IMG/VR virus record: IMGVR_UViG_3300025147_000004
Reading direction: 5' to 3' (one strand)
DNA: 64,000 bases
From: a virus
The first letter of the stretch is position 1. The number at the start of each line of letters is the position of its first letter. This document shows, one piece after another, positions 35,684 to 56,529 of the stretch. The translations under genes and the position numbers were made by a program. The notes under the pieces are model-generated. The model did not search any database. It saw only the letters and a list, made by a program, of their open reading frames with translations, and was not told where the DNA came from.

Positions 35684-36187
35684 TTATGATATATTTGGGA
35701 CGGGATTTATTGGAAAATTTAATCTTGCGAATTTGCCATAATATATAATTGCCGCCTCGTCGTAAGCGCGAGCAGCATCTTCCTCTACTTTAAACCGACC
35801 AAGAAATTTTTTCTTTCCATCAACATATATTGATACCTCCCATTTTTTATCTCTCGCAAACCATGATACCCCTTTGTATTTTGATGAGGAATTTTTATCC
35901 TTCTTTCTGTTCATGCCATTCTCGGATGTGGTGCAATGTCTCATGTTTAGTCGCTGATTATTCCATCCGTCTCCGTCCTCATGATCTATCATTGGTTTTT
36001 CTGGATTATCACCCATAATGAGTCGGTGCATCATCTGCATGGTTTGTTTGCCGTTAATTCTAATGCGTCTTACGGCATAAAATGTATTGCCGTCTTTCTG
36101 TGCATACCAATTAAATTGGCTAACCATTTCAAAATCTTCGTCATCAACCAAGGCTACTTGACCTTGTGTTAATTTTATTTCTTGCAT
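35684..36187 (-). CDS. HNH-AP2 homing endonuclease, copy B
   Basis: It shows roughly 55-60 percent identity, estimated by eye, to copies A and C. Motifs include IDHEDGDGWNNQRLNM and the AP2 segment SSKYKGVSW...GRFKVEEDAARAYD. The start is at MQEIKL. Confidence 0.8.
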   Translation of the reverse strand: MQEIKLTQGQVALVDDEDFEMVSQFNWYAQKDGNTFYAVRRIRINGKQTMQMMHRLIMGDNPEKPMIDHEDGDGWNNQRLNMRHCTTSENGMNRKKDKNSSSKYKGVSWFARDKKWEVSIYVDGKKKFLGRFKVEEDAARAYDEAAIIYYGKFARLNFPINPVPNIS

Positions 36188-36285
36188 TACTAAATGTTTA
36201 AAACAACAAACCCTCAAACTCAGCTTGCGGACTAAGAATGAAGGTTTGCTAAAAAATATTATCAATTATGCCGCAAGACATGCGA
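36188..36285 (-). promoter_or_regulatory. structured 98-nt leader of HNH-AP2 copy B (interleaved stems plus terminator-like hairpin)
   Basis: S1 pairs 36271-36277 with 36224-36230 (7 bp). S2 pairs 36239-36250 with 36205-36216 (12 bp including 2 G-U), followed by a U-rich tract. Confidence 0.4.
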
Positions 36286-36317
36286 CAAATATACGAAATA
36301 AAATACACACTACCAAA
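36286..36317 (-). promoter_or_regulatory. promoter of HNH-AP2 copy B
   Basis: The -7 box TATATTTG is at 36286-36293 and the -33 box TTTG at 36314-36317 (20-nt spacer). A block of about 36 nt is 31/36 identical to 43781-43816. Confidence 0.5.
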
Positions 36318-37848
36318 TATAATTACCAAATATGTGTTGTGTTTTACCATCCGCATTAATAATCACATCTCCGATACCCCAGCTACTCAACCCTTCGTTG
36401 TACCCATGATCAAGTGTCTGACAACCAACTACTAAACTACCATCCTGACGAGATGGCGTATGCGAGTGCGCAGTTATATTTCTCGAAGATAAATTCTTGA
36501 ACTGAACCGAGCTGCCACGACTACCGTTAGTTCCTTTATCTCCGTGCATGTTCAATTCTATACCACAAACCAACACGCTATCATCCACTTTGGTTGCCGT
36601 TATGTCCATTTGCTTGACTAGATACGGAAAGACGCCACAATCCTCTCTTAATGCGATTGGGAGCAATTCCGCGTACTTGATTGCATTGGGAATATCGCGC
36701 CTCCAATCCATATTGATTATATATCGGTCTAACATGTTGTCGTGGTTCGAAGCAACTATTACGATATTATCGCATAGAAGTTTTAGTTCAGCAAGAAAAT
36801 CCAATGTATCCTCAATCTCATTAGCCAGACTATTTCTGCCGGACTCAAATCTTTTAACTTTCAGAACTGGATTCTTTTCCTCGTGAGGATTAATACTCTC
36901 ACAATCCATCATATCGTATAGGATTAACATCTTCGGGTTTATGGCAATTATCCTATTTCGGATTCTTTCACGAGCTTCTTGATCTAATTTAGAGGCATGA
37001 ATATCACCCAATATGAGTGCTTCTGCCTTAAGCGCGGTGTATATAATTCCATCAGACACTCTCTTGTCGTAGTCGGTAAAATCGCCATCATCTCCGGCAG
37101 TCACGTAATGCATATCGCCATCTTGCACAACAACAAAGCCATAAACATGATGGAAGCACCCCTTCTTTCCAGTCTTACTATCAGTATAGTTAGGCAACGT
37201 GCAAGCTCCGGTCGTCATCATAATTTTTGGCTTGTGCCCTTTCGGAACGGGCATAAACTGCATGTGAACTCTCGGATGCCCAAATATACACGACTCGGAT
37301 GCGCTCAACCCGTTCAGTCCCGATAATGGCGTAACTGCTGTGGGTTGTATTTTAACGTCCGACATTAATTGAATACCATCGAAGAGATTATGTCTGTTGG
37401 CGTCCAAGTAGGGCAGGACTTCAGCGCACCAGACTTCCGCACGAGATTCTGAAAAAACGCTTGTGGGATTGGTATACCTGCTGGCGATTACATGTATCTC
37501 GGCATTTTTGAATCTGGCATAAGCTAATAGATTATCCCAAAACGGTTTATGTATTGGAGTTGAGTTTAGAGCAGTGGTGATTATGTATGTCTTGGATGGG
37601 ATGAGCTGCTTATGGGTGGCTTGCTCGTATTCGTTAGATGTAGTGCAGGCAGACATGTAGAGAGAATACAAGTCCATATGAACTCCAGCAACGGGATTTC
37701 CGGCAGACCCAAGCATTTTGCGAACCCTGTACCTTGCACTTTCCGTATCAATGGACGGGTCTTGGCTTACCATTTCCTTGGCAATAGCTCTCTTGTCTGT
37801 AATGCCATTGGCGATACATTCTCTAATAATTTTTTCTGTGAAAATCAT
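36310..37848 (-). CDS. calcineurin-like metallophosphoesterase with ~285-aa unknown N-terminal region
   Basis: The motifs are LILGDIHA, ASNHDNM, NMHGDKG and TAHSHTP (DxH / GNHD / H / GHxH pattern). 512 aa. Confidence 0.6.
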   Translation of the reverse strand: MIFTEKIIRECIANGITDKRAIAKEMVSQDPSIDTESARYRVRKMLGSAGNPVAGVHMDLYSLYMSACTTSNEYEQATHKQLIPSKTYIITTALNSTPIHKPFWDNLLAYARFKNAEIHVIASRYTNPTSVFSESRAEVWCAEVLPYLDANRHNLFDGIQLMSDVKIQPTAVTPLSGLNGLSASESCIFGHPRVHMQFMPVPKGHKPKIMMTTGACTLPNYTDSKTGKKGCFHHVYGFVVVQDGDMHYVTAGDDGDFTDYDKRVSDGIIYTALKAEALILGDIHASKLDQEARERIRNRIIAINPKMLILYDMMDCESINPHEEKNPVLKVKRFESGRNSLANEIEDTLDFLAELKLLCDNIVIVASNHDNMLDRYIINMDWRRDIPNAIKYAELLPIALREDCGVFPYLVKQMDITATKVDDSVLVCGIELNMHGDKGTNGSRGSSVQFKNLSSRNITAHSHTPSRQDGSLVVGCQTLDHGYNEGLSSWGIGDVIINADGKTQHIFGNYIW

Positions 37849-37869
37849 GTAATATGGTTTTAGTCAATA

Positions 37870-37890
37870 CAAAGATAATACATTTATTGA
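37870..37890 (-). promoter_or_regulatory. conserved-family promoter (AATAAATGTATTATCTTTG)
   Basis: The -7 box is at 37870-37877, 21 nt before the ATG at 37848. A TTTG lies 19 nt upstream. Confidence 0.55.
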
Positions 37891-37911
37891 CAATTGCAAA
37901 TTAAATGTAAA

Positions 37912-37942
37912 GAAAAAACCACCACTGAGATATGTGGTGGTT
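37912..37942 (-). terminator. intrinsic terminator ending the ncRNA transcript
   Basis: A 9-bp stem AACCACCAC/GTGGTGGTT with an 8-nt loop is followed by TTTTTT on the minus strand. Confidence 0.7.
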
Positions 37943-38377
37943 AGTGTACTTGAAAGGCTTTACTGGTAGATATGCTCTGACACTCCGCAAACCAGTTTTA
38001 ACAATTTAGTCAGCCTATCCCTCGATCCCATATACCGATGGGATTCTTATGATTGCGGGTGCTTTACGTGGGGAGAGCAAGACTCAAACTTGCATGAATC
38101 AGTATAAGCAATTCTGATCCTCATGTGCCTTGAATAGAAGAATTTTAACGAGTTCGTGATCTCTTAGTGAGCGGGTGCACATCTTAACCTAAGCCCCGAC
38201 CATTCTATTCAATGTGGTTAGCGTCTATCAATTCCGCCACCTCCCCATCCTCGTCTTTCCGAGTGTGTGAATTTTCCCAGCTTCTGACTATTTCTTAGCC
38301 GCGATAAGCTCACTGGTTTCGCTGCGCTCCTATCCGATTACTAACGCAATTCAATAAGTCGGATGAATATATTATGT
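37943..38377 (-). ncRNA. ~435-nt ORF-free structured transcript downstream of the SSB-like gene
   Basis: No ORF of 60 aa or more occurs on either strand. Nested long-range helices pair 38302-38309 with 37989-37996 and 38284-38290 with 38007-38013. The region is visibly more GC-rich than its flanks and ends in a terminator. Confidence 0.55.
38069..38246 (-). ncRNA. tRNA-derived module with ~100-nt insertion in place of the anticodon arm
   Basis: The minus strand reads GGGGAGG-TG-GCG-GAATTGATAGA-CGC ... GCAAG-TTTGAGT-CTTGC-TCTCCCC-A. This gives a 7-bp acceptor stem, a tRNA-Leu-type D arm and a T arm. No anticodon stem-loop could be found. Confidence 0.5.
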
Positions 38378-38755
38378 TCAAAAAGGCAGGTCATCGCCAT
38401 CTTTCTGATCTCCACCACTTTGCGTATCTCCCATTGGTGGCAAATCGTCCGCAGGTTTTGGTTTCGCCCCAGAAGTCTTCGTAATATTCACCTTCCATGC
38501 TGTTACGTTCGAAAAATACTTGCCGTTATATTCGCGAGATTCTACATTAAATCCAACCTCAACCTCGTCGTCCACTCGCATATCTGCGATCATTTCCGGT
38601 TTGTTGAATACAGTGAAGGCTATTTGTTTTGGCCACTGACCCTCCGATTCCTGTATGACGAAATCACGTTTACTCCACGCTTTCCCAGACGATGCACTTG
38701 TTCCTGATGCCTCTGGCAGGATTGCTACCACTATTCCACTAATTTTTAAATCCAT
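38378..38755 (-). CDS. SSB-like OB-fold protein (DUF3127-like) with acidic DDLPF tail
   Basis: The N-terminus MDLKISGIVVAILPEASGTS...WSKRDFVIQ resembles DUF3127. The C-terminal ...DGDDLPF resembles the SSB protein-interaction tip. Confidence 0.55.
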   Translation of the reverse strand: MDLKISGIVVAILPEASGTSASSGKAWSKRDFVIQESEGQWPKQIAFTVFNKPEMIADMRVDDEVEVGFNVESREYNGKYFSNVTAWKVNITKTSGAKPKPADDLPPMGDTQSGGDQKDGDDLPF

Positions 38756-43184: not shown

Positions 43185-43673
43185 TTATTTATTCTCTGAG
43201 AAATTTAACCATGCAAATTCACCAAAATATTTTATCGCTGCCACGTCATAAGCGCGAGCTGCATCTTCTTCAATAATGAAGTATCCTAAAAACCCCATTT
43301 TGCCGTTTACCCTTATTTGCGCCAACCATTTTTGTCTTGACTCAATCCAACATACTCCTTTGTATTTAGAAGAAGAATTTTTACGAGATTTTTGATTCAT
43401 TTGATTTTGCCTACGCGTACATGGTCTTAAATTTAACCGCCAATTATTGCAACCGTCCCCATCCCAGTGGTCTACACACGGCTTTAGCGGATTATCGCCC
43501 ATTATAAATCTGTGCATATACTGAAGAATACGTTTGCCGTCAATGGTAACGGCTCTTTCTGCATAGAATATATTTCCAATTTTGTGTGCGCACCATTTGT
43601 GTTGATTTACCCTCTCGAAATCTTCATCATCCACATACGCCACTTTTCCTTGTGTTAATTGTATTTCCCGCAT
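43185..43673 (-). CDS. HNH-AP2 homing endonuclease, copy C
   Basis: The HNH region is VDHWDGDGCNNWRLNL. The AP2 domain is SSKYKGVCWIESRQKWLAQIRVNGKMGFLGYFIIEEDAARAYD. Confidence 0.8.
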   Translation of the reverse strand: MREIQLTQGKVAYVDDEDFERVNQHKWCAHKIGNIFYAERAVTIDGKRILQYMHRFIMGDNPLKPCVDHWDGDGCNNWRLNLRPCTRRQNQMNQKSRKNSSSKYKGVCWIESRQKWLAQIRVNGKMGFLGYFIIEEDAARAYDVAAIKYFGEFAWLNFSENK

Positions 43674-44484: not shown

Positions 44485-44688
44485 TTAGTAACCTTTATAA
44501 GATTCGATGTCAAGCGTTTCGGGAATAAACCTTTCAATATTAGACTCATGACCACAGAAGTTGCAGCGGCATTGGTCGTTTATTCTTGTTACATTCGTAG
44601 CTGCACATCCCTGTCTTGGGCAGGTTAGGACGAGTGCGGTATATCCGTTATCGTCTTCTGGGGCGTATCCGTTCGGCTCTCTACTCAT
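44485..44688 (-). CDS. Zn-ribbon mini-protein
   Basis: 67 aa with the cysteine clusters CPRQGC...CRCNFC. Confidence 0.45.
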   Translation of the reverse strand: MSREPNGYAPEDDNGYTALVLTCPRQGCAATNVTRINDQCRCNFCGHESNIERFIPETLDIESYKGY

Positions 44689-44836
44689 CTTCCGCCCCCA
44701 TTTCTTCCGTTACGTCCACTTCTTTCCAAATCATTCCGCAACATCCAATTTCGCCCAACTCTTTACATAGGGCATCTGCCTCTTCCGTACAGGGATAACC
44801 TGCGCAGTTATGGCACAATCCACTGTCTGACTCTTC

Positions 44837-45001
44837 TTACTGCTCGTAAACTTTTTCGTTAATTGCTGTTCTCATCATTTTTGTTGCTATTATTTGATTA
44901 AATTCGCCTTCAATTTTGTTGAGCATACTGAGAAGGTTTAGGTTATTTTTAGCGTTCTCAATGTCGTTTAGTAACTCCTCTGCTGTTTTTTCTGTTCTCA
45001 T
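44837..45001 (-). CDS. unannotated 54-aa helical ORF
   Basis: Hand translation gives MRTEKTAEELLNDIENAKNNLNLLSMLNKIEGEFNQIIATKMMRTAINEKVYEQ. Its ATG lies 24 nt downstream of the promoter at 45026. Confidence 0.35.
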   Translation of the reverse strand: MRTEKTAEELLNDIENAKNNLNLLSMLNKIEGEFNQIIATKMMRTAINEKVYEQ

Positions 45002-45025
45002 CTATTCTGTTGTTTTAATACAATG

Positions 45026-45046
45026 CAAAGATAATATATTTATTCG
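45026..45046 (-). promoter_or_regulatory. conserved-family promoter (AATAAATATATTATCTTTG)
   Basis: The -7 box is at 45026-45033. Confidence 0.5.
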
Positions 45047-45089
45047 GATTCGCAATAGCTTTGGCAATTATTTTTGGATTATTTTCATT

Positions 45090-45275
45090 TTACCTGATTA
45101 AGCCCACCTTCACGAGCCACTCCCGTTCCTTTTCTTTAGACTCAAACTTGACCCACAACCTCTTATCCGCCACGGAGTTACAACTATCAAAAACCCCGTC
45201 AATAGAGGCGATCTCGCACAGATGACAGTAGTGCGAGTCGGATAGGCGGGAGAGGGTTAGTTTTCTTGTAATCAT
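45090..45275 (-). CDS. hypothetical protein
   Basis: 61-aa ORF with an ATGA overlap to the upstream small ORF. Confidence 0.4.
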   Translation of the reverse strand: MITRKLTLSRLSDSHYCHLCEIASIDGVFDSCNSVADKRLWVKFESKEKEREWLVKVGLIR

Positions 45276-45409
45276 AGCTTCTCAGTTATTTCTCCACCAC
45301 ATTTTTGGCACACATAATCCTCCGACATAAACCCAATCGCTCTCACCACTTTCGCTTCTCCTTGCGTTCCAGCCCAATCACAATCAACACATTCGTAAGT
45401 TTGTTCCAT
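45272..45409 (-). CDS. unannotated 45-aa Zn-ribbon ORF
   Basis: Hand translation gives MEQTYECVDCDWAGTQGEAKVVRAIGFMSEDYVCQKCGGEITEKL, with two CxxC pairs. It has coupled junctions on both sides (TAATG and ATGA). Confidence 0.4.
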   Translation of the reverse strand: MEQTYECVDCDWAGTQGEAKVVRAIGFMSEDYVCQKCGGEITEKL

Positions 45410-45750
45410 TATATATTATTTTCAATTAAACTTAAATCAATATAAAAATCTGCAAATATATGGATGGTATAGACGACCCTTCCATGAGGTTTATCCGTAC
45501 ACTTTTCTTTTTTGAAATGATGTGCATCTTCCGGTATGGTTAGGCATTCTTCCAGCCTATCAACCATTGCTTCGGCTGTACTTGCGTTTTCAGTCCATCT
45601 CATTGCCATTATGTCCATGTCGCTCGCTAAACTTCCATGCAGTCCAAGTGCCCATCCACAATCCAATGCAGCCTGACGGAAATCATTCCACATACAGGCA
45701 TAAAATACTGCCCTTCCGTTTGTTATTACGTGTTCTCTACTTTTTGCCAT
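45409..45750 (-). CDS. hypothetical protein (possible minimal nucleotidyltransferase fold)
   Basis: 113 aa. LHGSLASDMDIM loosely matches the GS...DxD pattern, but the spacing is shorter than canonical. Confidence 0.25.
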   Translation of the reverse strand: MAKSREHVITNGRAVFYACMWNDFRQAALDCGWALGLHGSLASDMDIMAMRWTENASTAEAMVDRLEECLTIPEDAHHFKKEKCTDKPHGRVVYTIHIFADFYIDLSLIENNI

Positions 45751-46133
45751 TATTCTACTCCCCTCCTAGCTTTATCAATACAATCAGCTACCCATCCCAC
45801 TAAATAAGCATCGGCCTCCATTCCGGTACTATACTCTCCGAGATGACCCCAGATCATCCGAGTGGCGTGGGTCGCTTCGTGCGCAATAGTTTCAATTACG
45901 CAATACTTGCGAAGTTTAAAAACTACAATTACCCCAATCTTACGATCCTCTTTTTGGGAGACTAATTGCGTAAATGCCCGCATCTTTCCGGTTTCATCAG
46001 CGCCCATAGCGTCTCCAGAAGGGAATTCAAGAAATCTTTCACCTATCGCAGATAAATCACTCGTGATAGATACCCACAATTTTACTGGGTATATTTGCGG
46101 ATCAAATTGGTGGATTACTGTTTTCCTTTTCAT
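45750..46133 (-). CDS. small HExxH metallopeptidase-like protein
   Basis: 127 aa with IAHEATHA, an HExxH motif. Confidence 0.4.
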   Translation of the reverse strand: MKRKTVIHQFDPQIYPVKLWVSITSDLSAIGERFLEFPSGDAMGADETGKMRAFTQLVSQKEDRKIGVIVVFKLRKYCVIETIAHEATHATRMIWGHLGEYSTGMEADAYLVGWVADCIDKARRGVE

Positions 46134-46390
46134 TTAGCAGAAGATGAATATGGACTATTAACCAAAACTATATCGTCATCCTCATCATACGACCAGCATT
46201 TAGGACAATAGTGCATTCCTTTCGATTTTATCCATTCCGATTCTAATGCCTTTTCTTCCGCAACTGCTTCGTCGTTCCAGCATGATCCATCATCGCAGTC
46301 GCATCCGGCATCTTCGCCACAATTATCACAAACTACCGTGAACATTTCTACTTTTTGTATCATTTTTTTATTTATTAGTTCTATAACCAC
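46130..46390 (-). CDS. Zn-ribbon mini-protein
   Basis: 86 aa with CDNCGED...CPKC. Confidence 0.45.
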   Translation of the reverse strand: MVIELINKKMIQKVEMFTVVCDNCGEDAGCDCDDGSCWNDEAVAEEKALESEWIKSKGMHYCPKCWSYDEDDDIVLVNSPYSSSAK

Positions 46391-46743
46391 CCCTTTTTAT
46401 CATCATGTATATTCCCCACCACAGTCAACTTACTCCCATCCAGATTTCTCCAATACACGCCACTTTCCAGTCCTCGCGCCATGAATGCAGCCTTCTTAAA
46501 TATGATCACCCACTTATCTCCGAGCGCATCTACGCAAACATCGTCCTCAAATATGCGACGTCCAGCGACGTCAAACTCGGATGAGAATTCGCCGAGGGTT
46601 AGGGGACTTACTTGTTCTGCATCCCAATCCTCTCCTTTAAGTTCAAACGTAATCGCACAACTCCCATCAGATGCGGTTATGGCCGATCCTTCCACCCATT
46701 CCCCTGTGTCGAGGCGTTGACCTCTATAAATATGCTCTCTCAT
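46381..46743 (-). CDS. YopX-family protein
   Basis: YRGQRLDTGEWVEGS near the N-terminus and VVGNIHDD near the C-terminus are typical YopX features. Confidence 0.55.
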   Translation of the reverse strand: MREHIYRGQRLDTGEWVEGSAITASDGSCAITFELKGEDWDAEQVSPLTLGEFSSEFDVAGRRIFEDDVCVDALGDKWVIIFKKAAFMARGLESGVYWRNLDGSKLTVVGNIHDDKKGWL

Positions 46744-46958
46744 TTCTCTATCTCCTTATATTCGTTACAATATCTAAAATATCCCATATCCTTCCAGCCA
46801 TTTCTCCAGTCTGTCGGGATTCGGAACATCACTCTCTTTCCGAGTTGGCATTTGGCTCTTACTTTTATGAAGCCCCTTTCTGATAAAATTGGCTCAATAA
46901 AGTTCTGGCACAGATCGCATTCTTGGCGGGGTGGTTTCTTGGCAGCAGTAGTCGTCAT
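46740..46958 (-). CDS. hypothetical Cys-containing mini-protein
   Basis: 72-aa ORF. Confidence 0.4.
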   Translation of the reverse strand: MTTTAAKKPPRQECDLCQNFIEPILSERGFIKVRAKCQLGKRVMFRIPTDWRNGWKDMGYFRYCNEYKEIEK

Positions 46959-47410
46959 CTCACTTTCTTTATTATTTTAGTTATTTTTATCATTTCCATT
47001 TTATCCCCACCCTTCAGTACCGCTTCGGCTCGCGTGATTCGGTCGCGGAGTTTGCCTGACGCCACAGTCTGCTCACCTTCGACTTCTTCATATGCTATAA
47101 TTTCCCAGATTCTTCTTATTTGTACCATTAGGGCTTGGCTCACTTTCGCAATTGGCATCCCCTCTTCTGTCTCTCCTCTCTTAGTTGTCAGATTCGACCT
47201 ACGGCAATCAAGTTTATCTCCGTTTTTGCAAAATATTCGCACTTTCGGATCTTTCTTACACAGGACGTATTGGGGCAGAGTCCACCTGTGCCCGTCGATC
47301 AGCGCATTTGGGAATTTATCCATTCCCCATTTGTGCTGCGATGCTCGGAAATAGTCGCGGTCGTCAAGGATGGCGCAGGTTCCGTTGTTTAATTCGAGGA
47401 GCTGGCTCAT
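46955..47410 (-). CDS. HNH-endonuclease-like protein with degenerate active site, no AP2 domain
   Basis: LELNNGTCAILDDRDYFRASQHKW aligns with the N-termini of copies A-C. IFCKNGDKLDCRRSNL aligns with IDHRDGNGCNNQRLNM, but the His is replaced. The start is at MSQLLEL. Confidence 0.4.
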   Translation of the reverse strand: MSQLLELNNGTCAILDDRDYFRASQHKWGMDKFPNALIDGHRWTLPQYVLCKKDPKVRIFCKNGDKLDCRRSNLTTKRGETEEGMPIAKVSQALMVQIRRIWEIIAYEEVEGEQTVASGKLRDRITRAEAVLKGGDKMEMIKITKIIKKVR

Positions 47411-47411
47411 A

Positions 47412-48116
47412 TTAGTATCGTATATTTTTATCAAGACCCAATTTATCAAACATGGCAAGCGTTTCTGGCATACCTGCACCCACGCCTTTACCAAAAAAGA
47501 ATAAATCTTCCATTATTGACCAGTTTGCCATTCCTGTGCGATATTTCATGTCGTTTTTACTGCACCAAGCAATCATAGCACTCCTGATCAAAGACGTCGA
47601 AATAACTATGTCATGGTCTTCATAAACCCTATCCGCCGCAGTAGGCTCTATTTCGTAGTTTTCTGCCGGAAAATTGGTTTTTGCGTCCCTGCCTTTAAAT
47701 TTCAGAGCCATTCTATCATACTCTTTAGCGGCTCCAATCTCGGAATCCCAATAACTAAGATTTCTTTTCCCATTTATCCCAATACATGATGTCCATTTAC
47801 CATCCGTTCCAAATTTCGACACACCTCTATATTGGCTCGATTTTGCTTTTATTTTTTTTTCATCATCCACCACAACCTCTACTTTGCTTATGCGCTTCTT
47901 TGGGGCTTTTTTGCTATCCTGCTTCACTGGTTCAGGTACGATATCCTCTTTCGGCACATGTGCCACCATTTCTACGGATAATGCATGCTTGTCAGCCTCC
48001 GCGATTCTATCCTGCATAGACATTCCGGCTCCTTTCGCCATCTTTGCCTCCTGTTCTGCTATTTGCCTCTGCCTTTTCTCTGCCATCCAGTCCGAAATCT
48101 TACTATTGTCGTCCAT
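47412..48116 (-). CDS. AP2-domain DNA-binding protein (no HNH domain)
   Basis: SSQYRGVSKFGTDGKWTSCIGINGKRNLSYWDSEIGAAKEYDRMALKFKG is an AP2 domain. The start was set to MDDNSK, downstream of the leader. Confidence 0.6.
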   Translation of the reverse strand: MDDNSKISDWMAEKRQRQIAEQEAKMAKGAGMSMQDRIAEADKHALSVEMVAHVPKEDIVPEPVKQDSKKAPKKRISKVEVVVDDEKKIKAKSSQYRGVSKFGTDGKWTSCIGINGKRNLSYWDSEIGAAKEYDRMALKFKGRDAKTNFPAENYEIEPTAADRVYEDHDIVISTSLIRSAMIAWCSKNDMKYRTGMANWSIMEDLFFFGKGVGAGMPETLAMFDKLGLDKNIRY

Positions 48117-48222
48117 TGTAATATTTTTAAAATAGAAAAACCTCCAAGGGAGCAAGTAGAGAATTGCCACACCTCAAAGGTTTCTGTAAAATAAGTTTCG
48201 TGGGTCTCTACTCCCGAAAGCA
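48117..48222 (-). promoter_or_regulatory. structured 106-nt leader of the AP2-only gene
   Basis: S1 pairs 48206-48215 with 48148-48161 (5+5 bp with a 4-nt bulge). S2 pairs 48178-48183 with 48138-48143 (AAACCT/AGGTTT, extendable), followed by TTTTCTATTTT. Confidence 0.4.
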
Positions 48223-48230
48223 CAAAGATA
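48223..48230 (-). promoter_or_regulatory. -7 box TATCTTTG of the leftward early operon
   Basis: The plus strand reads caaagata at 48223-48230. Confidence 0.45.
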
Positions 48231-48839
48231 ACATTAATTTTCGAATAAACAATAGTAAATCACAAATAAATAAAACAATCTACATAAATCTACATATTTA
48301 AGTTTTACTATAAATATTGTTATCATACGCTAATATGTAGAAAAACTACATATTTTAACTTTATGTATTGCATATTTTTGCAAGAAAAACTACATTTTAT
48401 GTATCTTGTGCATAAAAATTACTCTGCGATCAAAATTTTCATCTATACATTAAAAAATCACATGGAAGGCAAAAGGTGTTTATTGCGTTGTTGGGTTGAA
48501 TTTTAAGTACTATTCTTAATATTATGTTTATGTCGTTCAATGAATGTAGTGAAGGCACTTTTATAAAGTGTTTCAGTATTATGTATGTTCAACTTACATA
48601 TATGTAGTATATGTATTATACACATACATATTATATATAGGTTACATATATATCCCTTACAGTAACATCAGTTACATTATTTAACTCTAATATATTGATT
48701 GTCAGCAAAAAAAATGCAATGTAGTTATATATTTCACATACTTCGATCCTTCATCAGCTTCATTAAGCCCGATCCAAGGCATAATCCACAAATCACGAAC
48801 ACCAGAATTGAGTAGGGTTAGTAATATTGGTACAACCCT

Positions 48840-48876
48840 ACCAGTACCGACCAGTAGCCACCAGTACCTACCAGTT
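48840..48876 (+). repeat. four ACCAGTA-type iterons with exact 10-bp phasing
   Basis: The copies read ACCAGTACCG, ACCAGTAGCC, ACCAGTACCT and ACCAGTTGAA. A related ACCAGAA lies at 48801. Confidence 0.8.
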
Positions 48877-49125
48877 GAAAATCAGAAAAATAAAAAAATT
48901 CAGAAAATTTCAAAATAATAAAAAATGTCTCGGAATCGGAAGGCGCGCGTCCTCAAAATTTTTAAAGGGGGGTGTACCCAGTGGCCTGTGTCCCGTCACA
49001 TACCTACATAATATTACATTTATTAGTTGTTATTAGCACATATACGTGTTATATGTATAGCTTAAACCATTTGATTGATAATCAGATAGCTGTAAATTTT
49101 AAGTGAGTATAATGTATTATGTATG

Positions 49126-49602
49126 TTAAAATTTCAGCTTAAACTCACACGTTTCGCATCTCTGGGGGAGATAATAACGTATCGTTTCGTTATCCTGTTT
49201 AGGCTGTTCTTTATTGAATCCTTGTAGCGTTGAAAGTTTAATAAGTAGGTCACTTTTGAGCTTAACATCTGTACTTGTACGTATAATTGCGGTGAGTTGG
49301 TCTATTATGGCCGATTTACTTAAAATCTCATTCTCATTATGTTCAATATTTTGATTTTCTGAATCAATTACAATCCTCTTGTTTTTTATTAAATAAGCTT
49401 TTACTGACTTGTTGTTAATCCAATTAGTAGCCCTTTGTTGTAGTAAGCTTTGATCAATATCCTTTGTTATTCCCTTACATGCTTTATATGCTTCGATTCT
49501 GTTTGCACTGTTAAATAGATATGCATCTAAGCAAATTAGCTCTAAACTTGAAAGGTTTAAAATTAAATTATCTTGCTCCTGTAACTCTTCGCCTGTTTGC
49601 AT
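49126..49602 (-). CDS. HTH protein resembling a small terminase subunit (Terminase_2-like)
   Basis: LSSLELICLDAYLFNSANRIEAYKACKGI...ATNWINNKSVKAYL follows the L..Q..F...Y.....N...A...AGY pattern only loosely. The start is at MQTGEEL, 21 nt after a -7 box. Confidence 0.3.
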   Translation of the reverse strand: MQTGEELQEQDNLILNLSSLELICLDAYLFNSANRIEAYKACKGITKDIDQSLLQQRATNWINNKSVKAYLIKNKRIVIDSENQNIEHNENEILSKSAIIDQLTAIIRTSTDVKLKSDLLIKLSTLQGFNKEQPKQDNETIRYYLPQRCETCEFKLKF

Positions 49603-49623
49603 ATCGTTAATTGTAAAGAAAGG

Positions 49624-49631
49624 CAAAGATA
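49624..49631 (-). promoter_or_regulatory. -7 box TATCTTTG
   Basis: The plus strand reads caaagata, 21 nt upstream of the ATG at 49602. Confidence 0.45.
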
Positions 49632-50013
49632 AGAAAAGAAACGGGAAAAGCAATACTAACCTAACTAAACCAAAAACCTTCTTCGCGACGTGAGTCGCAT
49701 TGCATGTAATTACTCAGGCATTCGTGAATTGATTATATATACAGTAATACACATATGTATATATCTATATAAGCGTGCATATGTGTGATTGTATTAACTA
49801 CACTAAATCAATGTAGATTAATTATGTAAGTACCTGATTATCAGCGACTAAAACGATCTCCGCCGAAATGTACTAACTATCTACTCACCGGAAGAGTGTC
49901 TATAATAGGCTTATATGGGCATTAATGGGTATATGTGTAATGTACTGATGTATAAGTAATTAATAGTAATGATATAAGTGATTAAAGTAAACATAAGTGA
50001 AAAGTTCTTATTT

Positions 50014-50070
50014 CTTTTAACATTCTTTAACTAAATTAATTAGGTACGTTATAGGCATTTATTATCTTTG
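50014..50070 (+). promoter_or_regulatory. rightward early promoter, copy 1 of a paralogous pair
   Basis: The 28-nt block CTTTTAACATTCTTTAACTAAATTAATT is followed by TATCTTTG at 50063-50070. Confidence 0.5.
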
Positions 50071-50105
50071 TGTATCCTAAAGTATGGGATTTAAAACAAA
50101 TAAAG

Positions 50106-50297
50106 ATGAGAGCAACTTACAAAACAGTCGGAGAAGTAGTAATAAGCATGAAGGATATTAGGAACATGTATAAATTAACCGCGTTAATTGACGGCATTTA
50201 CAAGGTTAGGTTAATTGCAATGACTCCCAATAGTCTCGAATTGTTACCTGCTGAAGTATCCGCACACTTTGAAAAGTTAAATATATCCTTAAATTAA
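50106..50297 (+). CDS. hypothetical early protein
   Basis: The start was moved to MRATYK, downstream of the -7 box. 63 aa. Confidence 0.4.
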   Translation: MRATYKTVGEVVISMKDIRNMYKLTALIDGIYKVRLIAMTPNSLELLPAEVSAHFEKLNISLN

Positions 50298-50412
50298 ATT
50301 GCAGTGAAAAAACTAATTCACATATTGACTCCCAAAAAATTGACCTTCGCAGAAAAAAGGGAAAAGGTAAGGGAAAAGAAAGTAAAGAATTACACGTTTT
50401 AATAAAAAAGTT

Positions 50413-50625
50413 ATGCAAAAGTTGGAAATAAAAGGCGTAAAGGTAGGCCAAAGGTTTATGTATGATAATCACAATATGGCTGAGGTGGTTGATTTTTACG
50501 AACAGAAAAGTATGGTAACGGGTGAAATTATTGGTTACATATGTATAGCTAAAGGCGTAAATACTTTATCTACAAATTTATTTGAAACATCATTTTCGAG
50601 AGTAATAAGATTTAAGAGAAGCTAA
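50413..50625 (+). CDS. hypothetical early protein
   Basis: 70-aa ORF. Confidence 0.45.
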   Translation: MQKLEIKGVKVGQRFMYDNHNMAEVVDFYEQKSMVTGEIIGYICIAKGVNTLSTNLFETSFSRVIRFKRS

Positions 50626-50637
50626 AAATAATTTATC

Positions 50638-50695
50638 CTTTTAACGTTTTTTAACTAAATTAATTTGCAGGACCCGATTAGAATACCGATCTTTG
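50638..50695 (+). promoter_or_regulatory. rightward early promoter, copy 2 of the paralogous pair
   Basis: CTTTTAACGTTTTTTAACTAAATTAATT is 26/28 identical to the block at 50014. A TTTG lies at 50664-50667 and GATCTTTG at 50688-50695. Confidence 0.45.
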
Positions 50696-50758
50696 TAATG
50701 CCCCGCAGGGTTAGGGCCAAAAGGTAAAAAGTTTAACATAACATTAAAAACATAAAAC

Positions 50759-50908
50759 ATGAAGACTTTACAGACAATTATCGAAAACATTGACAACGCA
50801 AACTTTGGAGTTAATGAATATGTATTTTGTGCCGTAGTACTGGCAGTAATTATCGGAAGTTGTTTTTTACTGCCTGACGCAAACAAAGTGAAGAAATCAA
50901 ATAAGTAA
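50759..50908 (+). CDS. unannotated 49-aa membrane mini-protein
   Basis: Hand translation gives MKTLQTIIENIDNANFGVNEYVFCAVVLAVIIGSCFLLPDANKVKKSNK. It replaces the antisense ORF 50641..50886. Confidence 0.4.
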   Translation: MKTLQTIIENIDNANFGVNEYVFCAVVLAVIIGSCFLLPDANKVKKSNK

Positions 50909-50951
50909 TTATTCCAGCAATAAGTAATTAACCAATATAAAAAGAAACGCT

Positions 50952-51191
50952 ATGAATATCTTAACACATTGTATTTCTGACCACGTTGAGGATGAAAGAT
51001 TCTTATTTGATGGTACGCCGGAAGAATTTGAATATATCAGGGCTGAAATAATTTCAGAACACTACGCAACTATTGAGAGCGAAGTTAAGACGGGGTCAAT
51101 AATATCCAAATATATTTATGACGATCTTAAAAATTATGGAATGCTTCAATGGCATTTCAATAAACACTATCCAAACAAAGTAACAAAGTAA
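50952..51191 (+). CDS. hypothetical early protein
   Basis: 79-aa ORF. Confidence 0.45.
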   Translation: MNILTHCISDHVEDERFLFDGTPEEFEYIRAEIISEHYATIESEVKTGSIISKYIYDDLKNYGMLQWHFNKHYPNKVTK

Positions 51192-51216
51192 TCACACAAC
51201 ACTAAAAATAAAAGAG

Positions 51217-51417
51217 ATGGGAAAGTTTACATTGCATAATGAAATTGGGGAGTATATGTCATATTGTACGAAATCGCTGGATAAGGCGAAGGCGGAATGT
51301 GATAAGGCTAAATATTATTGCTATGTTTCTGAATCTTATTTTGCGCCGTCTCCATTTGACAATAATAAAATAACAGAACACGGGAAAATTGTCTATAGTA
51401 ACTATACACAAAGATGA
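51217..51417 (+). CDS. hypothetical early protein
   Basis: 66-aa ORF. Confidence 0.45.
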   Translation: MGKFTLHNEIGEYMSYCTKSLDKAKAECDKAKYYCYVSESYFAPSPFDNNKITEHGKIVYSNYTQR

Positions 51418-51502
51418 AAAACAGGCCAGTAATCGCCTTAATAATAGTAATTTTACTATCAATAGGAGTACAAATATTAATAAACCTTTAATAAATAAAG
51501 CC

Positions 51503-51781
51503 ATGAGAAATATAACAGCTACTGGGAAAGTTTACGGCGAAGAAATAGCCGTTAAGCAAATAAACAAAACAATTGCGCGCAAATTGTATGAATCCGGCAA
51601 AACTATTTACCTGCAAACATCAAATTTTTATCCTTTTGGAGTATGGCAAAATTTGATGAATGTTTGTAAATCTGATCAGGTGGATTCAAATTTTGATTAT
51701 TTATGTGATTCATTCCGTTGGTATAATTGTGATAACGAACGCGGGAAATATATACATTTTTACTGTGACGTAAATAATTAA
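51503..51781 (+). CDS. hypothetical early protein
   Basis: The start was moved to MRNITA to remove the overlap with the upstream gene. Confidence 0.4.
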   Translation: MRNITATGKVYGEEIAVKQINKTIARKLYESGKTIYLQTSNFYPFGVWQNLMNVCKSDQVDSNFDYLCDSFRWYNCDNERGKYIHFYCDVNN

Positions 51782-51815
51782 TTTAATCGCCTTAATAGGC
51801 ACAAAACTAAAAGAG

Positions 51816-52004
51816 ATGAAAACAGTATACTTAAACATGAAAAGTAGTTACGGGACTGAAACAGTCGATCAAATTTGTCGGGAAGACTTCGCCACGGCTA
51901 AAGAGTACAGAACAGAGCTTAGGAGTATGTTATCAAATTATCACTTAGCCGGAATGAATGTTTATACTTCGAGACGTTGTACGAAGGAATGGAAAAATAG
52001 TTAA
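51816..52004 (+). CDS. hypothetical early protein
   Basis: 62-aa ORF. Confidence 0.45.
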   Translation: MKTVYLNMKSSYGTETVDQICREDFATAKEYRTELRSMLSNYHLAGMNVYTSRRCTKEWKNS

Positions 52005-52047
52005 TTATTAATAAACAGTATTTATAAACAACAATAAAAACAGTATT

Positions 52048-52341
52048 ATGAAAACTTTAAATGTTCCAAATTACAGAGTTATCAAAGCTACATTTGTAGG
52101 TGCAACAAATAACAGAGGGTCGCGCGTTAAATTATACGAAACAGCGCGATATAATGACCAAAAAACAGAATCAAAAATATTCAGCTACGATTATGAATAC
52201 GACAATGTATTGGATCAGGCCATTGCCATATTAGAAAGAAACGACATGAAGGTAGTTTGCAGAGGGTCAGAAAACGATTGTTATTATATTTTATGTGACA
52301 ATTGGGGTCCTGAATTTAAGAGCGTTAAAGACTTAAAATAA
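52048..52341 (+). CDS. hypothetical early protein
   Basis: 97-aa ORF. Confidence 0.45.
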   Translation: MKTLNVPNYRVIKATFVGATNNRGSRVKLYETARYNDQKTESKIFSYDYEYDNVLDQAIAILERNDMKVVCRGSENDCYYILCDNWGPEFKSVKDLK

Positions 52342-52736
52342 TGACCACAATAGAATACCAAACATATTTACATGAATTAACCGGATTAAAAATATCAGTT
52401 AAAAAGTGTACCGGATCAGAAAAAGGATATTTTAAATTTTGGCCCCAATATCAAAATGGTGAATATCCCAACTTTGAACACGAATTAATACAGTCACTAA
52501 GATCAAACGATACAAGCGAAGAACCAAACAGAAACGGATTTTCAATATCTGAAATACTTATCTTTGGTTTGGTCGAATCCGATTGTGTAAAATTTAAAAG
52601 AGAATATAAGCCAAAAGAAATATCTGAAATGAGCGTTAAAAGTTGGGGATCAAAAAATTCTCAAATGAGATTGGACAAACGAAGTGAAAGAAACGCAAAG
52701 AGAATGAACAAAGGAAATACAGCACGATATTATTAA
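52341..52736 (+). CDS. hypothetical early protein
   Basis: 131 aa with a TAATG junction to the upstream gene. Confidence 0.45.
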   Translation: MTTIEYQTYLHELTGLKISVKKCTGSEKGYFKFWPQYQNGEYPNFEHELIQSLRSNDTSEEPNRNGFSISEILIFGLVESDCVKFKREYKPKEISEMSVKSWGSKNSQMRLDKRSERNAKRMNKGNTARYY

Positions 52737-52755
52737 TTAACAGTAAAAAACAACC

Positions 52756-53019
52756 ATGAAAAACATAGTAATAGACACAAATAGCGCGATTTATTTAGTA
52801 AATTTTCAATTTAGTTATCCAAACGGAAAATTTATAGTTACCGGATCAGGAATTATGGATTGTTTAAAGGAACACGATAAACACGGGATTGACTCAATAA
52901 AACAGTTTGATCCTTCAGACGGCAAATTTAAAAGAGTATCGCGGGACGTTATACGCAAAAGTTTAGACTACGATACTGAAGTTGATTTGTATTTAAAAAA
53001 TCATTACTGGTTCAAGTAA
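52756..53019 (+). CDS. hypothetical early protein
   Basis: 87-aa ORF. Confidence 0.45.
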   Translation: MKNIVIDTNSAIYLVNFQFSYPNGKFIVTGSGIMDCLKEHDKHGIDSIKQFDPSDGKFKRVSRDVIRKSLDYDTEVDLYLKNHYWFK

Positions 53020-53020
53020 A

Positions 53021-53048
53021 CGAACAACGAACAACGAACAACGAACAA
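53021..53048 (+). repeat. perfect tandem heptamer array (CGAACAA)x4
   Basis: The array starts 2 nt after the stop at 53019. It is followed by CGCGAAA and two AAGTATAAACC copies (53054-53064 and 53074-53084). Confidence 0.9.
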
Positions 53049-53100
53049 CGCGAAAGTATAAACCCGCAAATAAAAGTATAAACCAATAAAAAGTAAAGAA

Positions 53101-53250
53101 ATGAACACTATAACTTATCATAGAAACCCAACAAAATCAGAAATCAAATTTGGCGAAGGTGCAATTCATTATTGTGATTTTGATTTAAACATTTGTGTTA
53201 AACCTGACGGCAATTATAAAAATGGATTATATCACCTTATGATGGTTTAA
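53101..53250 (+). CDS. unannotated 49-aa ORF
   Basis: Hand translation gives MNTITYHRNPTKSEIKFGEGAIHYCDFDLNICVKPDGNYKNGLYHLMMV. Confidence 0.3.
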   Translation: MNTITYHRNPTKSEIKFGEGAIHYCDFDLNICVKPDGNYKNGLYHLMMV

Positions 53251-53360
53251 GGTATTACTATTAAACGAACAAACCCCGTCTCTACAAAACAAGGTAGTGA
53301 ATCGAATAACTGACGGGACAAACGGCAAAATTGCCACAACAAATAATAAAAGCAAACGAT

Positions 53361-53804
53361 ATGAAAAATTTAATCGAATTTAACGGGATATTTTTTACAG
53401 AAGGAACAAGCGAACAAGTAAAACAAATTATCAGTAACCATGTAGGCAATAGAAACGAACGGTTAAGAGTATATTATGGAGATGCAACAACTGGTAAAAG
53501 TTGGCACGAAGAAAATGATATTTGTGGTTATATTGGTAGGAGTACAGGAACACGAAAAATACCTTTATTAATCGCAAATAACCGTTCTATAGGTGGTGAT
53601 TCTATTCTTTGTGATTGTATTGTTAAAATCGTTCGTATCAGTGATAAACGGGTTTTATACGTTCATCCTACCTTCAATAACGGTTTATTTGTCGTAGATG
53701 GCTATAGGGTGACTATAGATGGTTTAACTCATGCAAACTGTAAAAGCGAACAATCAGCGCAAAGGTTAGCCGATTTTATGAACGGGAAAAGGAATAGTAA
53801 GTAA
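53361..53804 (+). CDS. hypothetical early protein
   Basis: The start was moved to MKNLIEF, the first ATG. Confidence 0.45.
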   Translation: MKNLIEFNGIFFTEGTSEQVKQIISNHVGNRNERLRVYYGDATTGKSWHEENDICGYIGRSTGTRKIPLLIANNRSIGGDSILCDCIVKIVRISDKRVLYVHPTFNNGLFVVDGYRVTIDGLTHANCKSEQSAQRLADFMNGKRNSK

Positions 53805-53814
53805 TAGCGAACAA

Positions 53815-54009
53815 ATGACACATACAAGCGAACAAGCAAAGCGAACGAACACAAATATAAATACTGGAGTAGATCATTCCAGAGTACAACAAAACAAGCC
53901 GTGTTTCTTCGTAAACTGGACTGACAAAAATGGCGAAAATCAATACAAGTTTTTTGAATTTGTGTTTATAATGGAGAGTTTTAGAATTAGATTAATAAAC
54001 GAACAATAA
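53815..54009 (+). CDS. hypothetical early protein
   Basis: 64-aa ORF. Confidence 0.4.
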   Translation: MTHTSEQAKRTNTNINTGVDHSRVQQNKPCFFVNWTDKNGENQYKFFEFVFIMESFRIRLINEQ

Positions 54010-54017
54010 GCGAATAA

Positions 54018-54191
54018 ATGAAATGCAATAACACAAAACTAGAGAAAATACAAAATAGAACAAGCGAATTACACTCTATTTTAATTGACATTAAAAGTAA
54101 TTGGAATCTTATTCCAATAACTGAGCAAACAAAGCTAAGGCGATCTATATTGTCGGACATTAATTCATTACTAAATAAAATTAACAAATAA
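54018..54191 (+). CDS. unannotated 57-aa ORF
   Basis: Hand translation begins MKCNNTKLEKIQNRTSELHSILIDIKSNWNLIPITEQTKLRRSILSDINSLLNKINK. It is preferred over the antisense ORF 53987..54187. Confidence 0.4.
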   Translation: MKCNNTKLEKIQNRTSELHSILIDIKSNWNLIPITEQTKLRRSILSDINSLLNKINK

Positions 54192-54195
54192 AAAC

Positions 54196-54456
54196 ATGAA
54201 AAACATTAGAGTATCTGAATATATTCATAAGTTTAGAATTGACAGATTAAGTGATTGTACATCAATGAATGATGGGTTTAACATGATTGTATTTGCAGAT
54301 AATAACGAATTTAATAAAATAAATTGGTGTATTCGAGATGGGATAATTATAGAGACTTATCTATTTACTTTTAAAACAATACCGGAAGGGGAGTATAAAT
54401 TAATGTATCTTAATGAGGTATATCTTGATCTTGATACAATGATGCATAATATTTAA
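54196..54456 (+). CDS. hypothetical early protein
   Basis: 86-aa ORF. Confidence 0.45.
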   Translation: MKNIRVSEYIHKFRIDRLSDCTSMNDGFNMIVFADNNEFNKINWCIRDGIIIETYLFTFKTIPEGEYKLMYLNEVYLDLDTMMHNI

Positions 54457-54460
54457 TCAA

Positions 54461-54703
54461 ATGAAAAAGAAACAAACCCCCTCAACCATCATCGAACAAA
54501 TACGCGTTAATAGTAACGTAGCGTATGAAGCCAATTCTATTAGCGAACGACTTGAACAATTCTGGTATAATATGCCTGAGTATGTCGAACAGGAAACGAA
54601 CGACCGGATACAATTACTCAGAAAAGAACTGGATGAGATTGTAAGAATCGAATATAAGGCGAACGAAGAGTTAATGAACGAATTTAAACAATTAAGCAAA
54701 TAA
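54461..54703 (+). CDS. hypothetical early protein
   Basis: 80-aa ORF. Confidence 0.45.
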   Translation: MKKKQTPSTIIEQIRVNSNVAYEANSISERLEQFWYNMPEYVEQETNDRIQLLRKELDEIVRIEYKANEELMNEFKQLSK

Positions 54704-54729
54704 AATACACAAATGAACAAAACGAACAA

Positions 54730-54915: not shown

Positions 54916-54964
54916 AAGCGGAATGAAGTATAAAAATTGTTGTGGCAAAAGTGTAGCCAAATGA
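54899..54964 (+). other. out-of-frame SEC-C metal-binding motif (CPCKSGMKYKNCCG)
   Basis: The +1 frame relative to 54730..54915 reads LICPCKSGMKYKNCCGKSVAK*. It has no start codon of its own, and its TGA overlaps the next gene's ATG at 54961. Confidence 0.5.
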
Positions 54965-56528: not shown

Positions 56529-56529
56529 G

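Follow-up and report, generated by a model that had tools for sequence, protein, structure and literature searches.

The window examined here is a 64,000-nucleotide (nt) stretch of viral DNA (IMG/VR virus record IMGVR_UViG_3300025147_000004). On its minus strand an RNA cassette lies between a gene for a single-stranded DNA-binding (SSB)-like protein, which is the final protein-coding gene upstream of it, and the gene for an A1-like metallophosphoesterase; the genes around the cassette are all on the minus strand. The cassette comprises a leader, a module shaped like a transfer RNA (tRNA), a conserved trailer RNA of about 125 nt and an intrinsic terminator (Table 1). An earlier note on this DNA had pointed to a stretch free of open reading frames (ORFs) between the SSB-like stop codon (38378) and a minus-strand terminator, and this was borne out: over the roughly 435 nt the longest ORF had 31 amino acids (aa), and the terminator had a 9-base-pair (bp) stem and a T-run. 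The 3' part of the stretch, which the note had treated as flank, proved instead to be a conserved, doubly pseudoknotted RNA and the most informative element.

A blastn search with positions 37850-38400 against 50,697 phage records gave no match, and exact and degenerate trailer patterns run against viral and genome contigs returned two already known viral contigs and chance matches only. Starting from the flanking proteins, eleven more versions of the slot were recovered, each distinct and all from metagenomic phages, which makes 12 when the window is counted. L001 and L002 came by way of the A1-like protein, and L028, L029, L030, L031, L033, L034, L035, L042 and L043 by way of close relatives of the SSB-like protein. 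The order was the same in 12/12 versions, namely the SSB-like gene, the motif CATAATAT, a variable leader, one or two tRNA-shaped modules, the trailer, a terminator or ORFs, and the A1-like gene. A terminator followed the trailer at the equivalent place in L001, L031, L033 and L042. The distant A1-like phages (L003, L018-L022, Maribacter phage Panino and Flavobacterium elemoF) carried no trailer. The pattern matches in L039 and L040 did not hold up against the covariance model described below, and those in L004-L012 and L023/24 were judged from their context to be chance.

The trailer started 0 nt after the discriminator of the last module in 12/12 variants, whatever cargo preceded it. Its helices were drawn from an alignment of 10, then 12 sequences, and pair statistics were calculated on a model-based alignment. 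H1 pairs CAC-CCGC with GCGG-A-GTG, H2 is a hairpin with the loop consensus YSGGYAY, and H5 is formed by GUAU in that loop with GUAC in the tail. The fold has two pseudoknots because the 3' strand of H1 lies inside the loop of H3 and H5 joins the H2 loop to the tail. Results showed that 91% of the cells at the trailer pairs were paired, against 33-44% when the partners were slid by 1-3 columns; 21 of the 29 pairs were changed on both sides, and 0/500 shuffles reached the observed values. H4 was paired in 100% of cells with covariation at 5/5 pairs (89% of cells in a MAFFT-only alignment), and RNAalifold independently found H2, H4 and H3, while the support for H5 was a single compensatory event (UA to CG in L028/L035). 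The many G-U pairs, on this strand only, point to a structure at the RNA level.

A covariance model of the trailer (R1) matched the window at 37940-38070 with 132 bits (E=1e-31) and recognised a single copy in each related phage, at 103-140 bits; L042, which lay outside the training set, scored 119 bits. No further trailer copies were found within the window by R1 or the other scans. Trailer identity to the window was 59-76%, against 67-83% for the SSB gene, and because it was the lower of the two in 9/10 relatives, the fold has been kept by compensatory change. About 28 trailer nucleotides, mostly unpaired, were invariant. No Rfam family matched the trailer in the window and 9 related loci at E<=10, ribozymes included. 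A group I intron, an HDV-like or hatchet ribozyme, RNase P, a riboswitch and a tRNA-like structure were each considered and set aside, since the helix order agrees with none of these classes and Rfam supports none of them. The trailer appears to be a new RNA motif of narrow distribution, and its compact predicted fold with invariant unpaired nucleotides may suggest protein binding, ligand binding or catalysis.

The tRNA-shaped module of the window has the acceptor stem, D arm and T arm described in the earlier note, and all three are reproduced in the minimum free energy (MFE) fold. It shares with class II tRNA-Leu and with phage tRNAs the 7-bp acceptor, the discriminator A, the D arm GUGGCGGAAUUGAUAGACGC, the 5-bp T stem and the 7-nt T-loop; this D arm is one base from the GGUAGA version of module L028-1, which is the same as the bacterial tRNA-Leu D arm. 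The anticodon arm is missing, as the note had said. No anticodon stem with a 7-nt loop can be drawn, and the MFE fold has in its place the perfect 10-bp helix enclosing 63 nt; a hairpin is also present at the variable-arm position. Since the anticodon arm is absent, the module cannot decode. It differs further from class II tRNAs in having 146 nt rather than about 40-50 nt between the acceptor strands and the T arm, and in its elbow, where the D-loop has GA and the T-loop is TTTGAGT (UUU in the RNA), non-canonical against G18 G19 and T54 Psi55 C56. No CCA is encoded after the discriminator.

In the window ARAGORN reported 0 genes in tRNA and transfer-messenger RNA (tmRNA) modes, and Rfam 15 gave no match to the window at gathering thresholds and chance-level matches only at E<=10; the tRNA family RF00005 matched at neither setting. 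Intron_gpI had no match at E<=10, no anticodon-stem halves border the centre, and the centre of about 125 nt is shorter than any group I intron known to us. The tmRNA models of Rfam had no match in the window either, and the module has G3:C70, not G3:U70. YrlA (RF02553) had no window match at E<=10, with one 21-bit chance-level match over the L029 tRNA, and the GOLLD and ROOL models matched neither the window nor 9 related loci. The evidence supports the note in that the module is tRNA-derived and non-decoding. It is not an ordinary or intron-containing tRNA, a tmRNA or a member of an Rfam family. Its first 27 nt are nearly identical to those of L043-2 and L028-1 (81-82-nt Leu-like modules) and its last 26 nt are homologous to the ends of the same two modules with the T stem compensated; the 29 nt between these ends in L043-2 and L028-1 become 125 nt in the window.

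Modules were compared across the related loci (15 modules for the arms; 16 modules in 12 phages for the upstream hairpin). The helical frame was kept in the homologues. The acceptor stem was paired at 7/7 positions in 14/15 modules, the T stem at 5/5 (G-U included) in 13/15 with differing sequences, and the T-loop read TTCRANT in 13/15, L034 having been realigned for an extra base before its acceptor 3' strand. Module L001 has the same D- and T-arm type as the window, and its acceptor (AACTACA/TGTAGTT) differs at 7/7 pairs yet is paired throughout. A hairpin ended 3-6 nt before 13 of the 16 modules (3-4 nt in 12, 6 nt in the thirteenth), in L030 in the compensatory version CTTG...CAAG.

The variation lay in the centre of the module, which ranged from 38 to 146 nt. 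Four modules resemble real tRNAs (Thr-UGU, two Arg-UCU and Ser-GCU), with Rfam tRNA scores of 68 bits for Thr, 59 for Arg and 55 for Ser; the window module sits in the place where relatives have tRNA-Thr, tRNA-Arg or tRNA-Ser. Others had defective anticodon loops of 6 nt (L028-1) or 8 nt (L035-1), a 4-bp stem with the tetraloop GUAA (L031-2 and L034) or UCAA (L042), another central domain (L028-2 and L030), or inserts of about 40 nt (L001), 55 nt (L043-1) and 100 nt (window). The tetraloop stems read CCUU-GUAA-AAGG in the diverged L031 (1663-1744) and L034 (1700-1782) and GCUG-UCAA-CAGC in L042 (1140-1209), and these three are the clearest examples of tRNA shapes that are maintained without an anticodon. 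The spacer between tandem modules was also conserved (CAATTACAGGCC...CGTAAATTTAAGTCGAAGAAGG, then the hairpin GGCGAGA-TAGGG-TCTCGCC); its origin as a decayed trailer was rejected, the alignment not being significant.

The pair G3:U70 was observed in 7/15 modules (L033 at 1738-1809, L028-1, L028-2/L035-2, L034, L042 and L043-2), accompanied by the discriminator A73 in 6/7, L042 having C. G3:U70 with A73 is the alanine identity set of tRNA-Ala and tmRNA. The apparently intact tRNA-Arg(UCU) of L033 carries G3:U70 and, judging by its sequence, could be mischarged with alanine. As a universal module feature G3:U70 was discarded, being present in these seven modules only and replaced by G3:C70 in the window. 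Module 2 of L043 (~984-1064) combines the D-loop GA with the T-loop ATCATCC, in which A54/T58 stands for T54/A58, and the swap may be a compensated reverse-Hoogsteen pair. The earlier note had read the elbow of the window module as an A19:U56 compensation. This argument fails because the D-loop GA also occurs in relatives lacking U56, namely L033 (TTCGAGT, with C56) and L043-2, which leaves the window as the sole case of A19 together with U56.

The central insert of the window module contains what looks like a copy of its own trailer, colinear with it but with internal deletions; the two share GCACCCGC, TCAcTAAGA, ACgAAcTcGTTAAAA and TTCAAG, and two direct repeats stand in the same order in both. 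Local alignment of the insert with its own trailer scored 30.7, against 18.5 +/- 3.7 for dinucleotide shuffles (7/1000 reached the score), and the L001 insert scored 24.5 with its own trailer, against 15.2 +/- 2.9 (10/1000). The same test was not significant for cross-comparisons, the L043-1 insert, the window leader against the trailer, or the inter-tRNA spacer, and the window insert showed no similarity to other loci or to that spacer. From the colinear repeats and the shuffle scores, the inserts look like degenerate, internally deleted copies of the trailer at their own locus. The window insert retains the H1 5' strand and junction motifs of the trailer but has lost its helices. Its sequence fits a history of duplication and deletion in a region rich in HNH-AP2 homing-endonuclease genes, and it could also be a functional mimic of the trailer. 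The duplication of GCACCCGC in the RNA, to which the earlier note had drawn attention, is present (plus-strand 38171-38178 and 38055-38062), but an exact 8-mer repeat in 435 nt is at about chance level, with an estimated 1.4 expected.

Table 1 Features of the RNA cassette and its flanks (window positions unless a locus is named)
Feature	Position	Strand	Remarks
SSB-like gene (DUF3127, C-terminal DDLPF tail)	38378..38755	-	ORF; PF11325 on all relatives
Motif CATAATAT	38376-38369	-	directly after SSB-like stop codon; likewise in 12/12 variants
Leader	38247..38377	-	mosaic, type varies among relatives; window's type otherwise only in L033
Local leader hairpin	38364-38332	-	
Leader hairpin CTCG-GAAAGA-CGAG	38250..38263	-	ends 3 nt (GAT) before first base of tRNA-shaped module
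tRNA-shaped module, 178 nt	38069..38246	-	acceptor stem, D arm, T arm, discriminator
Acceptor 5' strand GGGGAGG	38246-38240	-	
D arm GCGGAATTGATAGACGC	38237-38221	-	tRNA-Leu type
Central replacement of anticodon and variable arms	38094..38220	-	centre of about 125 nt
Perfect 10-bp helix	38212-38203 / 38139-38130	-	closes 63 nt
7-10-bp hairpin, variable-arm position	38125-38093	-	
T arm GCAAG-TTTGAGT-CTTGC	38093-77	-	5-bp stem, 7-nt loop
Acceptor 3' strand TCTCCCC	38076-38070	-	7/7 pairs with GGGGAGG, one G-U
Discriminator A	38069	-	
Trailer, ~125 nt	37945..38068	-	begins directly after discriminator
Trailer linker	38068-38062	-	
Trailer H1 5' strand CACCCGC	38061-38055	-	
Trailer junction AATCATAAGA	between H1 5' strand and H2	-	
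Trailer H2 hairpin, loop CGGTAT	38044-38025	-	
Trailer junction CGAGGGAT	between H2 and H4 5' strand	-	
Trailer H4 5' strand AGGCT	38016-38012	-	
Trailer junction GACTAAATTGTTAAA	between H4 5' and H3 5' strands	-	
Trailer H3 5' strand ACTGGT	37996-37991	-	
Trailer H1 3' strand GCGGAGTG	37988-37981	-	pseudoknot
Trailer H3 3' strand ACCAGT	37967-37962	-	
Trailer H4 3' strand AGCCT	37959-37955	-	
Trailer tail GTAC	37949-37946	-	pairs with H2 loop: H5, second pseudoknot
Intrinsic terminator AACCACCAC-8 nt-GTGGTGGTT, then TTTTTTC	37912..37942	-	9-bp stem 37942-37917, closes cassette
Next transcription unit	36310..37877	-	-7 box, then A1-like gene
TAnnTTTG box TATCTTTG	37877-37870	-	in AT-rich spacer downstream of terminator
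A1-like 'DNA transfer' metallophosphoesterase gene	37848-36310	-	PHROG 1745, E=1e-126
Inter-module spacer	L028 3546-3610; L031 1601-1662; L035 584-650; L043 ~914-983		

The earlier note had nested the module inside two long-range helices between leader and trailer. Both are complementary in the window but neither is conserved in the homologues, and the outer one had been misplaced, with AAACCAGT lying at 38312-38319 and not at 38302-38309. The outer helix, AAACCAGT (38319-38312) with ACTGGTTT (37996-37989), appears in the MFE fold, while the inner helix, TAGTCAG (38290-38284) with CTGACTA (38013-38007), does not and is absent from L033. ACTGGTTT is the 5' strand of H3, in which ACTGGT pairs with ACCAGT and covaries across 12 homologues, and CTGACTA falls within the conserved junction that follows H4. 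In L033 the leader, AAACCAGT copy included, is almost the same as in the window, but the trailer strand is TGGGT, which is not complementary to it and pairs only with the CCCA downstream in L033 itself; the leader of L042 is only 25 nt long, and in L001 (3429-3629) the leader is replaced by a 66-codon ORF for a hydrophobic peptide (MEAAVKIFAVIGLLVVLAVIMALP...). Because of these three loci, leader-trailer closure is not a conserved feature. The leaders of L028/L035/L037/L043, L029/L030/L034 and L002/L037 were observed to be mosaics of at least 4 unrelated structured-looking units (such as ATCCACACC...GGTGTGGAT and GGCGTTAAAGGATAAGAGACCTCGCC), combined differently between phages. At the start of the leader, the extended form (A)CATAATAT(T/A)A stands at 38368-38376 (minus strand), in the same place in 12/12 variants. 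The CATAATAT motif, of which the window holds 8 copies against 3.6 expected, might act as a promoter or in processing.

Among the flanking genes, the SSB-like protein matched PHROG 4932, 'single strand DNA binding protein' (E=6e-21), and relatives of the proteins were found in phages of Flavobacterium, Maribacter and Cellulophaga and in T5-like phages; the hosts of the related phages are of Flavobacteria type. The window has the same sequence as a JGI metagenome contig of 63.7 kb. The TAnnTTTG box in front of the A1-like gene is of the -7 consensus type of Bacteroidota. The GC content of the RNA region (0.42-0.45) was not above that of its flanks, as the earlier note had it, since the SSB-like gene has 0.445-0.46 and lower values occur in the AT-rich promoter spacer only. 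HNH-AP2 homing-endonuclease ORFs were found in the window at 35684-36265 and 43185-43673 (both minus strand) and adjoining the RNA slot in L002 (3428-3964), L028 (1878-2360 and 6304 onward), L033 (139-639) and L013; these endonucleases may drive the cassette-like exchange of tRNA-shaped modules. Maribacter phage Panino (L044, 25461-28224), which is in culture and only distantly related, has 15 tRNAs together with an annotated tmRNA directly downstream of its split A1-like gene, from which tRNA islands beside A1 may be ancestral in the group. Elsewhere in the window, ~44500-58000 has few ORFs of at least 100 aa and several inter-ORF gaps of 1-1.8 kb, and this region was without a tRNA match in ARAGORN and without an Rfam match.

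Of the options offered by the earlier note, the one tentatively favoured here, at somewhat short of an even chance, is an RNase P/Z processing signal. On this reading the cassette punctuates itself: the tRNA shape brings about its own excision and thereby sets the trailer RNA free. A stable-RNA cassette would be transcribed at the end of a replication-gene operon in the order leader with hairpin, tRNA-shaped module, doubly pseudoknotted trailer and terminator. Host RNase P would cut at the 5' end of the module, leaving the upstream RNA with a protective hairpin 3 nt from the cut, and RNase Z or an equivalent 3' activity would cut after the discriminator. The released trailer would begin at a defined nucleotide and finish with the terminator hairpin, and would be the conserved functional RNA of the cassette. 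It is established that RNase P, RNase Z and the CCA-adding enzyme read the acceptor/T minihelix and elbow of their substrates and ignore the anticodon arm; the module retains the acceptor/T-arm stack together with the D arm that forms the elbow. The anticodon arm, irrelevant to such a job, could contract as far as a tetraloop or expand. The kept enzyme-substrate surface, the upstream hairpin, the trailer start at the presumed cut and the terminator together favour this reading.

Several points weigh against the processing cassette. Processing is deduced entirely from shape; the elbow is non-canonical in the window (GA, TTTGAGT) and in the T-loop of L043-2, which could weaken RNase P recognition; and the D arm is kept though a pure handle would need none. 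Because some of the modules seem to be good tRNAs, the slot might be no more than a place for tRNA genes. Folding z-scores are modest (-2.06 for the whole stretch), the module folding modestly better than shuffles (z = -1.68), and shared descent of the GGGGAGG-type acceptor could explain the pairing in the window without selection. The window insert has no homologue, so that its helices are predicted from a single sequence.

Possible, but on balance doubtful, is a decaying tRNA slot reshuffled by homing endonucleases, with anticodon-less modules as functionless pseudogenes or fusion relics and the trailer alone functional, if anything; the route for the window would be a collapsed duplication of tRNA-trailer-tRNA-trailer. 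The HNH-AP2 ORFs beside the slot in L002, L013, L028 and L033 are in keeping with this, as are the switch of cargo identity between close relatives with the same leader (window and L033), the grading of Rfam tRNA scores from 68 bits to no match, and inserts that copy their own-locus trailer as duplication and deletion scars would. One acceptor type is also common to most modules, so a two-copy fusion would still pair, and in the distantly related phage from culture a normal cluster of 15 tRNAs adjoins the A1-like gene. Decay sits less easily with damage confined to the anticodon region, with acceptor and T stems that remain paired in 15/15 modules, the T stems through compensatory changes (GCAAG/CTTGC, GCAGG/CCTGT, GTAGG/CCTAC), and with acceptors of L001 and the window that differ at 7/7 pairs with none lost. 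It also leaves CCUU-GUAA-AAGG kept in L031 and L034 despite their differing T stems (GUGGG/CCCUU, with one mismatch, and AGGAG/CUCUU, respectively). That the trailer is a new class of functional RNA acting on the fused tRNA shape, either self-cleaving or binding the elbow or acceptor, and setting or gating its 3' end, is unlikely; the modules would then be natural tRNA scaffolds, the window cargo would mimic the trailer, and the trailer fold would be unrelated to HDV-like theta ribozymes. As the insert keeps the H1 5' strand and junction motifs, it could compete for the partner strand or factor of the trailer as a cis-acting switch. Distinctly unlikely is a new self-cleaving ribozyme that cuts directly after the discriminator and matures the 3' end of the tRNA or tRNA-like module without host nucleases, as a functional analogue of the HDV-like theta ribozymes, which in gut phages lie 3' of tRNAs. 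The constant start of the trailer relative to the discriminator (12/12 variants), the compact double pseudoknot with about 28 invariant, mostly unpaired nucleotides, and the precedent of theta ribozymes 3' of phage tRNAs (PMC10879173) speak for it. However, no Rfam ribozyme matched even at E<=10, the strand order (H1 5', hairpin, H4/H3 5', H1 3', H3/H4 3') is unlike the HDV-like P1, P2, P3, P1', P4, P2', a partly conserved linker of 6-8 nt separates the presumed cut from the first helix, and host RNase Z suffices for precursors without an encoded CCA.

A tRNA mimic or decoy, another option of the earlier note, is improbable. It would be a CCA-tailed, perhaps aminoacylated top half resembling the tmRNA domain or YrlA, and might titrate a host factor that binds tRNA, for instance a defence nuclease (one that cuts anticodons or another), a synthetase or a Ro-like protein, with the centre under diversifying selection. 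An arms race would be expected to leave the acceptor/T/D frame intact and the centre hypervariable, as is the case here, G3:U70 occurs in 7/15 modules (6 with A73), and phage tRNAs alter their anticodon loops to escape host nucleases (PMC10264068). Yet a decoy for anticodon nucleases should retain the anticodon loop that these modules lose, and the invariant fusion to the trailer would go unexplained; the window module has G3:C70, the YrlA and tmRNA models do not match the window, and no gene for Ro, RtcB or similar was found among the neighbours examined. Highly improbable is a single RNA of about 435 nt closed by the two leader-trailer helices, or a tRNA with an intron or a tmRNA. Both helices are perfectly complementary and AAACCAGT/ACTGGTTT is in the MFE fold, but they are not conserved in L033, L042 and L001, and their 3' arms are used by the covarying H3 and a conserved junction. 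A group I intron would not fit into a centre of this length, and the Intron_gpI, tmRNA and tRNA models gave no match.

Among known systems, tRNA-like processing signals include mascRNA at the 3' end of MALAT1 and MEN-beta and the tRNA punctuation of mitochondria. These share with the cassette a tRNA shape inside a longer transcript that counts for its form and not for decoding, excision that defines the ends of the neighbours, and a stabilising structure by the cut; they are eukaryotic or organellar, whereas here the RNA of interest lies downstream and processing is predicted. An engineered 'tRNA scaffold' for recombinant RNA expression has reportedly been built by Ponchon and Dardel. There too a foreign RNA replaces the anticodon arm of a tRNA chassis, and the product is processed and stabilised as a tRNA would be, but that is a laboratory design, while the present arrangement occurs in nature and carries as cargo what looks like a degenerate trailer copy. 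The tmRNA domain and YrlA likewise mimic the tRNA top half with other RNA in place of the anticodon arm; in contrast to tmRNA, the window lacks G3:U70 and no reading frame for a tag was called, and whereas YrlA has its ends on the anticodon side, a Ro-binding helix is missing here. In phages of Bacteroidota and Bacillota, theta ribozymes map to within +/-5 nt of the 3' end of a tRNA, and like the trailer they are pseudoknotted RNAs fused to tRNA 3' ends in Caudoviricetes of Bacteroidota-type hosts (PMC10879173). The trailer is about twice as long, with another helix order and no HDV-family Rfam match. GOLLD and ROOL are phage-borne structured RNAs of 500-800 nt beside tRNA islands that form cages, and GOLLD can hold tRNAs in its linker (PMC12286853); the trailer differs in having only about 125 nt and no Rfam match.

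The usual view of phage tRNA genes is that they supplement the codons available or let the phage escape anticodon nucleases. The phage clade described here keeps non-decoding tRNA shapes, always fused to a conserved, doubly pseudoknotted RNA outside Rfam. The trailer adds a small member of about 125 nt to the unexplained structured RNAs beside phage tRNAs (GOLLD, ROOL and theta ribozymes), and the covariance model with the 12-sequence alignment makes the motif directly searchable. If the module does serve as a processing handle, the cassette would be a bacterial-virus counterpart of mascRNA-type punctuation and a natural tRNA scaffold.

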